Shown: piece by piece, positions 1,745 through 1,854 of the stretch
Numbering within the stretch: the first letter of the stretch is position 1
Layout of the letters: every line of letters begins with the position of its first letter
IMG/VR virus record: IMGVR_UViG_2681813313_000011
Origin: a virus
Lineage: Duplodnaviria > Heunggongvirae > Uroviricota > Caudoviricetes
Length of the DNA: 5,025 nt
Reading direction: 5' to 3' (one strand)
Program-made: the position numbers and the translations under genes
The notes under the pieces: model-generated
Seen by the model: the letters and a program-made list of their open reading frames with translations, nothing else
Database searches by the model: none
What the model was told of the DNA's origin: nothing

Positions 1745-1774
1745 CAAAAAAAACCCCGTTTGTGGGCGGGTTTT
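1745..1774 (-). terminator. Intrinsic terminator, candidate tR' (target of Q antitermination)
   Basis: Minus-strand RNA AAAA-CCCG-CCCACAAA-CGGG-G followed by UUUUUUUUU. Lies about 50-75 nt downstream of the predicted PR' start and upstream of the tRNA cluster. The forward strand also has a T-rich tail, so it may be bidirectional. Confidence 0.55.
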
Positions 1775-1825
1775 GTTTGCTTTTGCCATCACGTACAAAA
1801 TCGGCAAAATATCAGATTTGCATGA

Positions 1826-1854
1826 AATATATGCCTTTCAATCTACTTTTGCAA
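1826..1854 (-). promoter_or_regulatory. Candidate late promoter PR' with a downstream -10-like pause element
   Basis: Minus strand: -35 TTGCAA (1854-1849), 17-nt spacer, -10 TATATT (1831-1826). A second TG-extended -10-like element (TGATATTTT) lies about 10 nt downstream of the predicted start, as expected for the sigma-dependent pause used by Q proteins. Overlaps the 3' end of the Q ORF. Confidence 0.4.

Follow-up and report, generated by a model that had tools for sequence, protein, structure and literature searches.

Positions 1854-1745 on the minus strand of the DNA analysed here, a stretch of 5,025 nt from a Caudoviricetes virus (IMG/VR record IMGVR_UViG_2681813313_000011; hereafter the window), very probably form the unit that regulates late genes in a lambdoid prophage of the phage 82 type, as a homologue of the phage 82 late promoter pR' together with its Q-utilisation site and the first terminator. 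What we observed is a set of sequence elements, their exact register, their conservation across relatives and the family of the adjacent Q gene. This homology to phage 82 pR' supports the proposal of a first-pass annotation of the same DNA that a late promoter, a pause element and a terminator make up a Q-utilisation unit here. The type of switch is already known, being the textbook phage 82 system, and the unit is known in kind and nearly in sequence; the sole parts that go beyond the phage 82 literature consulted are a possible leader hairpin and a weak terminator allele.

The window corresponds, on its minus strand, to the late-regulatory part of a lambdoid prophage; the unit lies directly downstream of a Q82-family gene on the same strand. 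This Q antiterminator gene (1838..2527, minus strand; ATG at 2527, TGA stop at 1840-1838) encodes 229 aa, and its sole Pfam match is PF06323 at an E-value of 9.8e-93. Three mutually unrelated Q families have been described, namely Q82 (PF06323), Q21 (PF06530) and Q-lambda (PF03589) (PMC9388147), and comparison of Q with these three, which the first-pass annotation had proposed, places it with Q82; PF06530 was absent from its Pfam matches. Searches of phage records with tblastn revealed 76.4% identity to phage 82 Q (X92588) across all 229 residues, 73.4% identity to the Q of phage 434, whose record labels its own Q 'Q82-like', and 67% identity to Gifsy-1 Q. The C-terminal region is of the Q82, DNA-binding type, unlike the divergent type found in some other E. 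coli members. Solved structures searched by Q sequence yielded no Q structure, Q21 included, and only a spurious endolysin match, and zero NCBIfam models matched Q. By family assignment, then, the window's Q is a Q82-family antiterminator.

Because the phage 82 GenBank record stops at the Q stop, we used an 82-like E. coli prophage, L034, as a stand-in, together with the verbal descriptions of the promoter in PMC5001585. The last 423 nt of the L034 Q gene are 100% identical to phage 82, identity is 96.8% over 1.9 kb and the upstream genes are the same; behind Q, this prophage reads TTGCAA-17 nt-TATATT-6 nt-AAATCTGATATTTTGCCAATGTTGTA. A distant blastn search found zero separate phage 82 late-region records, and a full-text literature search for the strings ATCTGATAT and GATATTTTGCC returned unrelated papers only.

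The promoter at the head of the unit has the TTGCAA-17-TATATT arrangement, present at 1854-1826 (minus strand) and overlapping the last Q codons just as the first-pass annotation had read it. Its -35 hexamer TTGCAA (1849..1854, called by promoter scan) falls within the Q codons GTT-GCA-AAA (Val-Ala-Lys), its 17-nt spacer (1832..1848) takes in the final codons of Q with their stop, and its -10 hexamer TATATT (1826..1831) sits at -12 to -7, all on the minus strand. A 9/12 promoter match is no evidence by itself, because the window holds 11 such promoter-like sites in the scan against 4.6 +/- 2.2 in shuffles. From its register with 82 pR', whose published wild-type transcript starts with AAA and has GCC at +15-17 (PMC5001585), we place the predicted start (+1) at A1819 on the minus strand, where the transcript would likewise begin AAA; from 1819 the window reads AAATCTGATATTTTGCCGATTTTGTA. 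In phage 82, the Q-binding element lies between -35 and -10, within 82PR' -31 to +30 (PMC4914094), and we infer that the spacer of the window is the place of the predicted equivalent. Thirteen of its 17 bases equal those of the 82-like promoter (L034) and 4 differ, in a spacer that is also constrained by the last codons of Q; the four differences may confer a sub-specificity within the Q82 family.

The initially transcribed region carries, in this order, AAA, an extended -10-like element at +6 to +14, GCC at +15-17, an AT-rich stretch and a U at +25, and its first 17 positions (AAATCTGATATTTTGCC) are identical to those of L034. The predicted sigma70-dependent pause element, TGATATTTT (1806..1814, minus strand), comprises an extended -10 TG (1814-1813; +6/+7), followed by a single spacer base (+8) and then the -10-like hexamer TATTTT (1811-1806; +9 to +14), and thus the -10-like element that had been noticed shortly past the predicted start is indeed present at 1814-1806. 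Next comes GCC (1803..1805, minus strand; +15 to +17), a discriminator-like part of the pause signal in the register of 82 pR', and then the AT-rich GATTTTG, after which the predicted pause site falls at +25/+26 (1794..1795, minus strand; T, then A). These features follow what has been described for 82 pR', which has a -10-like pause element with an extended -10 that is closer to consensus than that of lambda and a pause that requires GCC at +15-17 (PMC5001585), which pauses at +25/+26 with U at +25 (PMC5001585, PMC4914094), and in which sigma70 engages when the RNA is 21 nt long and an AT-rich stretch follows GCC (PMC5001585, PMC4914094, PMC3326312).

Shortly downstream of the predicted pause site lies a predicted intrinsic terminator, the equivalent of tR' (1745..1774, minus strand), with an A-tract, the stem CCCG (1770-1767)/CGGG (1758-1755) and U8 (1753-1746). 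The U-tract occupies +67 to +74, and the predicted leader from +1 (1819) is about 72-75 nt long, in keeping with the first-pass estimate that the transcript ends after about 70 nt; the U9 tail of that estimate needs correcting, as the T-run counts 8 T. The allele in the window is weak, with a 4-bp stem and an 8-nt loop at -6.2 kcal/mol (z -1.4 versus shuffles), whereas the common O157:H7 allele, GCGGG with T9, reaches -8.5 kcal/mol (z -3.5); relative to that allele, the window has A for G at 1759 and G for T at 1754, two changes that leave a 4-bp stem and a U-tract of 8. With so weak a fold, the hairpin by itself is not above chance. An extended structure that includes the A-tract as partner of U8 comes to -12 kcal/mol, and a terminator scan calls the site on the plus strand only, where the hairpin and T-tract are better. 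The exact terminator allele of the window was absent from 5,426 complete E. coli genomes and from IMG/VR, and because it is weak and was found nowhere else in the genomes and IMG/VR searched, termination may be leaky in the window; alternatively, the two substitutions may reflect decay or errors in sequencing. An Rfam E-value scan of the whole window returned nothing within 1745-1854, its matches elsewhere being sok, STnc100, the tRNAs and weak ones.

Evaluating the unit across relatives, a genome scan with one genome per species yielded 28 loci with Q homologues (59-93% identity) in 14 named enterobacterial genera; 27 of these loci (one, frameshifted, was dropped), plus the window, L034 and phage 434, make up a set of 30. 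The region from -45 to +30 is ungapped in 28/30 loci, and the other 2 have a 1-nt deletion between -10 and +1. Information content peaks at the -35, at the -10 and from +1 to +11, with 1.4-2.0 bits at every -35 position and 1.5-2.0 bits per -10 position (25 distinct homologous loci), 1.3-2.0 bits over +1 to +11, and 1.5 bits for the T at +25 in homologues. Within the -35, the third-codon synonymous positions -34 and -31 are nearly invariant, as against only 0.2-1.1 bits at -43, -40, -25 and -22 nearby. Within the pause element, no variation is seen at G+7, T+9, A+10 and T+14 and almost none at A+8 and T+11 (25 distinct loci). A hairpin with a U-tract is found in 27/30 genome loci, the U-tract starting at +47 to +114 (median about +74). 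An exact search of IMG/VR for the composite motif revealed at least 120 viral contigs; among the matches listed, 119/120 have a Q82-family ORF no more than 1.6 kb upstream, which in 106 ends at the expected codon and is directly adjacent, and 116/120 have a terminator at +47 to +76. Because this fixed, ungapped geometry and these near-invariant bases recur downstream of Q homologues from 14 genera and in at least 120 viral contigs, we consider the unit to be real.

Inserted genes mark one edge of the unit and a mosaic junction lies near the other. Among the viral contigs listed, 11/120 have a gene inserted between Q and the promoter, after about Q residue 218. The insert is antirepressor-like in L036, L037, L066, L091, L105 and L127, where its stop codon directly adjoins the -35 on the 5' side, and of the HNH/AP2 endonuclease type in L111, L115, L139, L148 and L149, where its ORF continues through the surviving tail of Q (codons ...LAKLD or ...LAKPN), in which the -35 lies; both types retain TTGCAAAACTGGATTAA, although it has ceased to code for Q. 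As the promoter is thus kept beside inserts as DNA that does not code for Q, we take the -35 as the left boundary of the functional unit. This layout is like that of Gifsy-1, in which a pR'-like motif lies about 0.9 kb from Q. On the other side, the similarity that accompanies Q82-type genes stops at about 1765, with a mosaic junction at about 1765-1775 (L003, L002). Phage Evi, which has a lambda-family Q (PF03589), has only the terminator-to-tRNA segment in common with the window, and the very same terminator stands about 85 nt past its own Q stop. We conclude from this mosaic pattern that the Q-specific part would run from 1854 to about 1775 and that the terminator would be a generic, exchangeable module; such a pattern would be predicted were Q specificity to lie between 1854 and about 1775.

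Between promoter and terminator, the leader RNA could form a hairpin (hairpin 1; 1781..1809, minus strand; +11 to +39) by pairing UUUUGCC with GGCAAAA, with the predicted pause site in its loop. Hairpin 1 is the minimum-free-energy structure (-7.9 kcal/mol, z -2.1). Most 82-type leaders of relatives have other stems at its place (GCC/GGC, GUCG/CGAC, UGUCA/UGACA), and in short variants the terminator hairpin itself occupies that place. RNAalifold on 29 mixed leaders gave zero consensus for hairpin 1, because these stems stand in differing registers; pair counting in 17 same-register leaders was not above shuffles, covariation was not significant, and the single-sequence fold z-scores of the region were modest (-0.05 to -2.6). 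We thus regard it as doubtful, and on balance improbable, that hairpin 1 is a functional RNA/DNA element of Q82-type units or that the weak terminator gives Q-independent expression of the prophage tRNAs. If it were so, hairpin 1 might alter pause escape or sigma release, or might create the naturally short RNA context needed by Q82 with NusA.

Taking the 82-type reading, we infer initiation at the predicted start, pausing, binding of Q and read-through as steps of a single mechanism, in which sigma70 holoenzyme would initiate constitutively at A1819 from TTGCAA-17-TATATT and sigma70 would be retained on the early elongation complex, to bind the non-template strand at TGaTATTTT (+6 to +14) once the RNA is about 21 nt long. 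Scrunching of the complex would lead to a pause at +25/+26, to which GCC at +15-17 and the U at +25 would contribute. In cells without Q, it would escape the pause and then stop at the hairpin and U8, giving the leader RNA of about 72-75 nt. Accumulated Q would bind the DNA element between -35 and -10, engage the paused complex and, with NusA, convert it to a terminator-resistant form, which would cross 1774-1745 into the tRNA and accessory genes and, beyond the window, into the lysis and structural genes.

The gene order around the unit, all on the minus strand, is hok/sok (4393-4717), an ORF, DUF968/HNH (3945-2890), RusA (2889-2524), Q (2527-1838), the unit itself (1854-1745) and, onward, three tRNAs (1625-1376), a TerB-family gene, a DUF3927 ORF, STnc100 and the start of a DUF1737-domain protein, the O157 counterpart of which is annotated as a DUF6645 domain-containing protein. 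The Q, RusA and DUF968 genes are all intact within the window. An O157:H7-type prophage has the same layout and is identical to the window from 2281 to about 1759, with flanks that diverge by 4-9%. The first genes past the terminator are tRNA-Ile2 (CAT), tRNA-Arg (TCG) and tRNA-Arg (TCT) (1376..1625, minus strand; ARAGORN and Rfam), and for the O157-type prophage the RefSeq annotation lists tRNA-Ile, Arg and Arg.

Several further observations concern these surroundings. A second promoter-like site, TTGCAA-17-TATTAT at 1635-1663 (minus strand), has a GC-rich stretch past its -10 and ends 10 nt ahead of tRNA-Ile2 (1625); it is conserved, along with the terminator-to-tRNA module, in phage Evi and another E. 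coli prophage, and is possibly the tRNA cluster's own promoter. The ORF at 1652-1807 (minus strand), considered as a remnant of another Q gene, was rejected, having neither a Pfam nor an NCBIfam match; one genome has a related stretch that carries the annotation 'antiterminator'. The TerB-family gene (774-1202, minus strand) has a premature TAG (Glu to stop, 1072-1070) whereas the O157-type prophage has an intact 142-aa version, and given this stop the prophage may be defective. The hok/sok type I toxin-antitoxin occupies 4543-4717 and 4393-4605 (both minus strand; sok RF01794 at 110 bits, Hok PF01848), and STnc100 (RF02076, 100.8 bits) lies at 433-605 (minus strand), between the DUF3927 ORF and a terminator at 408-390. 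There is also a sub-threshold match to isrK at 4303-4384 (minus strand; 27 bits versus a gathering threshold of 50) with a terminator-like hairpin at its end (4324-4307); IsrK is an Hfq-binding sRNA that belongs to Gifsy-1.

Weighing other explanations of the unit, the first-pass annotation had assigned it to a different Q class on account of its short leader. This was right in that the class is not lambda's, and wrong in that the class is not new, being the long-known Q82; the leader-length argument is itself invalid, because Evi, with its lambda-family Q, has the same terminator so close behind Q. A specificity class apart from the lambda, 21 and 82 types, marked by a short leader and compact layout, is accordingly highly improbable in our judgement: the leader does fall far below lambda's 194-nt leader (6S RNA), Q has no sequence match to any solved Q structure and 4/17 spacer bases are unlike the 82-like promoter, but Q shares 76% identity with Q82 as well as its C-terminal region of DNA-binding type, +1 to +17 are identical to the 82-like pR', the terminator of the 82-like prophage likewise lies at about +75, and leader length, as Evi illustrates, does not track Q family. 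Barely credible is a reading in which the hexamers arose by chance and the hairpin is a generic, bidirectional end-of-operon terminator for the early Q transcript, with no late promoter at all. The abundance of 9/12 promoter matches in the window, the call of the hairpin on the plus strand only and the occurrence of the terminator segment in phages with other Q types would all suit such a reading; yet hexamers, spacings and +1 to +14 are held ungapped over 14 genera and at least 120 viral contigs, they are conserved at synonymous codon positions and at loci that no longer code for Q, and the transcribed sequence agrees with that of 82 pR', a promoter characterised by experiment, as judged from the L034 stand-in and the published features.

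Two further explanations bear on parts of the unit and can be set beside the 82-type reading. A perfect CII-type box of the form TTGC-N6-TTGC, TTGCAACACTTTGC (1849-1862, plus strand), lies opposite Q and overlaps the pR' -35, and the phage 434 record labels its counterpart as the CII site and the paQ -35. TTGCAA might on these grounds belong mainly to a CII-activated, paQ-like antisense promoter on the plus strand that down-regulates Q in the lysogeny decision, which we think quite unlikely: the box is near chance (0.48 expected per window; at least one in 72/200 shuffles), its upstream half-site is gone in most non-Escherichia relatives, which retain TTGCAA, the plus strand shows no good -10 by inspection of the sequence, and the conservation of the downstream pause module would be left unexplained by such a promoter, which could in any case coexist with pR'. 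We also keep, because the terminator allele is weak, the rather unlikely explanation that the unit is a decayed relic with an inefficient terminator, the downstream tRNAs and accessory genes being transcribed from pR' without Q. Decay of this kind would fit the two substitutions that, compared with the common allele, leave a weaker stem and a shorter U-tract, the premature stop in the neighbouring TerB-family gene and the frameshifted Q, rusA and DUF968 genes of the O157 counterpart. It fits less well with the window's own Q, RusA and DUF968 genes, which are intact, with a promoter and pause module identical to the O157 and 82-like versions, and with a U8 that, paired with its A-tract in the -12 kcal/mol structure, can still terminate.

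The 82-type reading has consequences beyond this one prophage. Roughly one in four complete E. coli genomes, O157:H7 included, carries a prophage of the family with this switch, and for that family exact coordinates are supplied here for the predicted start, pause site and terminator, placing the downstream tRNA and accessory genes under predicted Q82-type control. The natural alignment of Q82-type promoters, drawn from 14 genera and at least 120 viral contigs, could also help to define the Q82 loading site.

Comparing the unit with known systems, phage 21 PR' has the same overall architecture and role, but its Q belongs to the Q21 family (PF06530) and its pause is at +18 (PMC3326312), whereas the register of the window matches 82 and not 21; the unit is therefore not of the phage 21 type. 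Lambda PR'/qut/tR' similarly offers a constitutive promoter directly after Q, a sigma70-dependent proximal pause for Q loading and an intrinsic terminator that Q overrides. The unit is not of the lambda type either, as both the Q family and the register of the -10-like element differ: lambda Q is of the unrelated family PF03589, and in lambda the -10-like element spans +1 to +6 and pausing occurs at +16/+17 (PMC5001585, PMC3326312), as opposed to +9 to +14 and +25 in the window. Phage 434 is closer, with a Q that is 73% identical, the same -35 overlapping an opposite-strand TTGC-N6-TTGC box and a terminator close behind Q; it differs in its -10 (TATACT), in its pause element (TGGTATGTT), in having no hairpin 1 and in a U-tract that begins at +47. 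With phage 82, as represented by L034, the differences comprise the 4/17 spacer bases, +18, +21, the sequences of hairpin 1 and the terminator, the strength of that terminator (-6.2 kcal/mol in the window versus -14 kcal/mol) and what comes next, namely tRNA genes in the window and a second terminator and a holin gene in L034. The likenesses to phage 82 take in a Q of the same family (PF06323) at 76% identity, the -35 and -10 and their spacing as in L034, a -35 overlapping the final Ala-Lys codons of Q, identity from +1 to +17, the U at +25 and a first terminator about 65-75 nt downstream, that of L034 itself lying at about +75.
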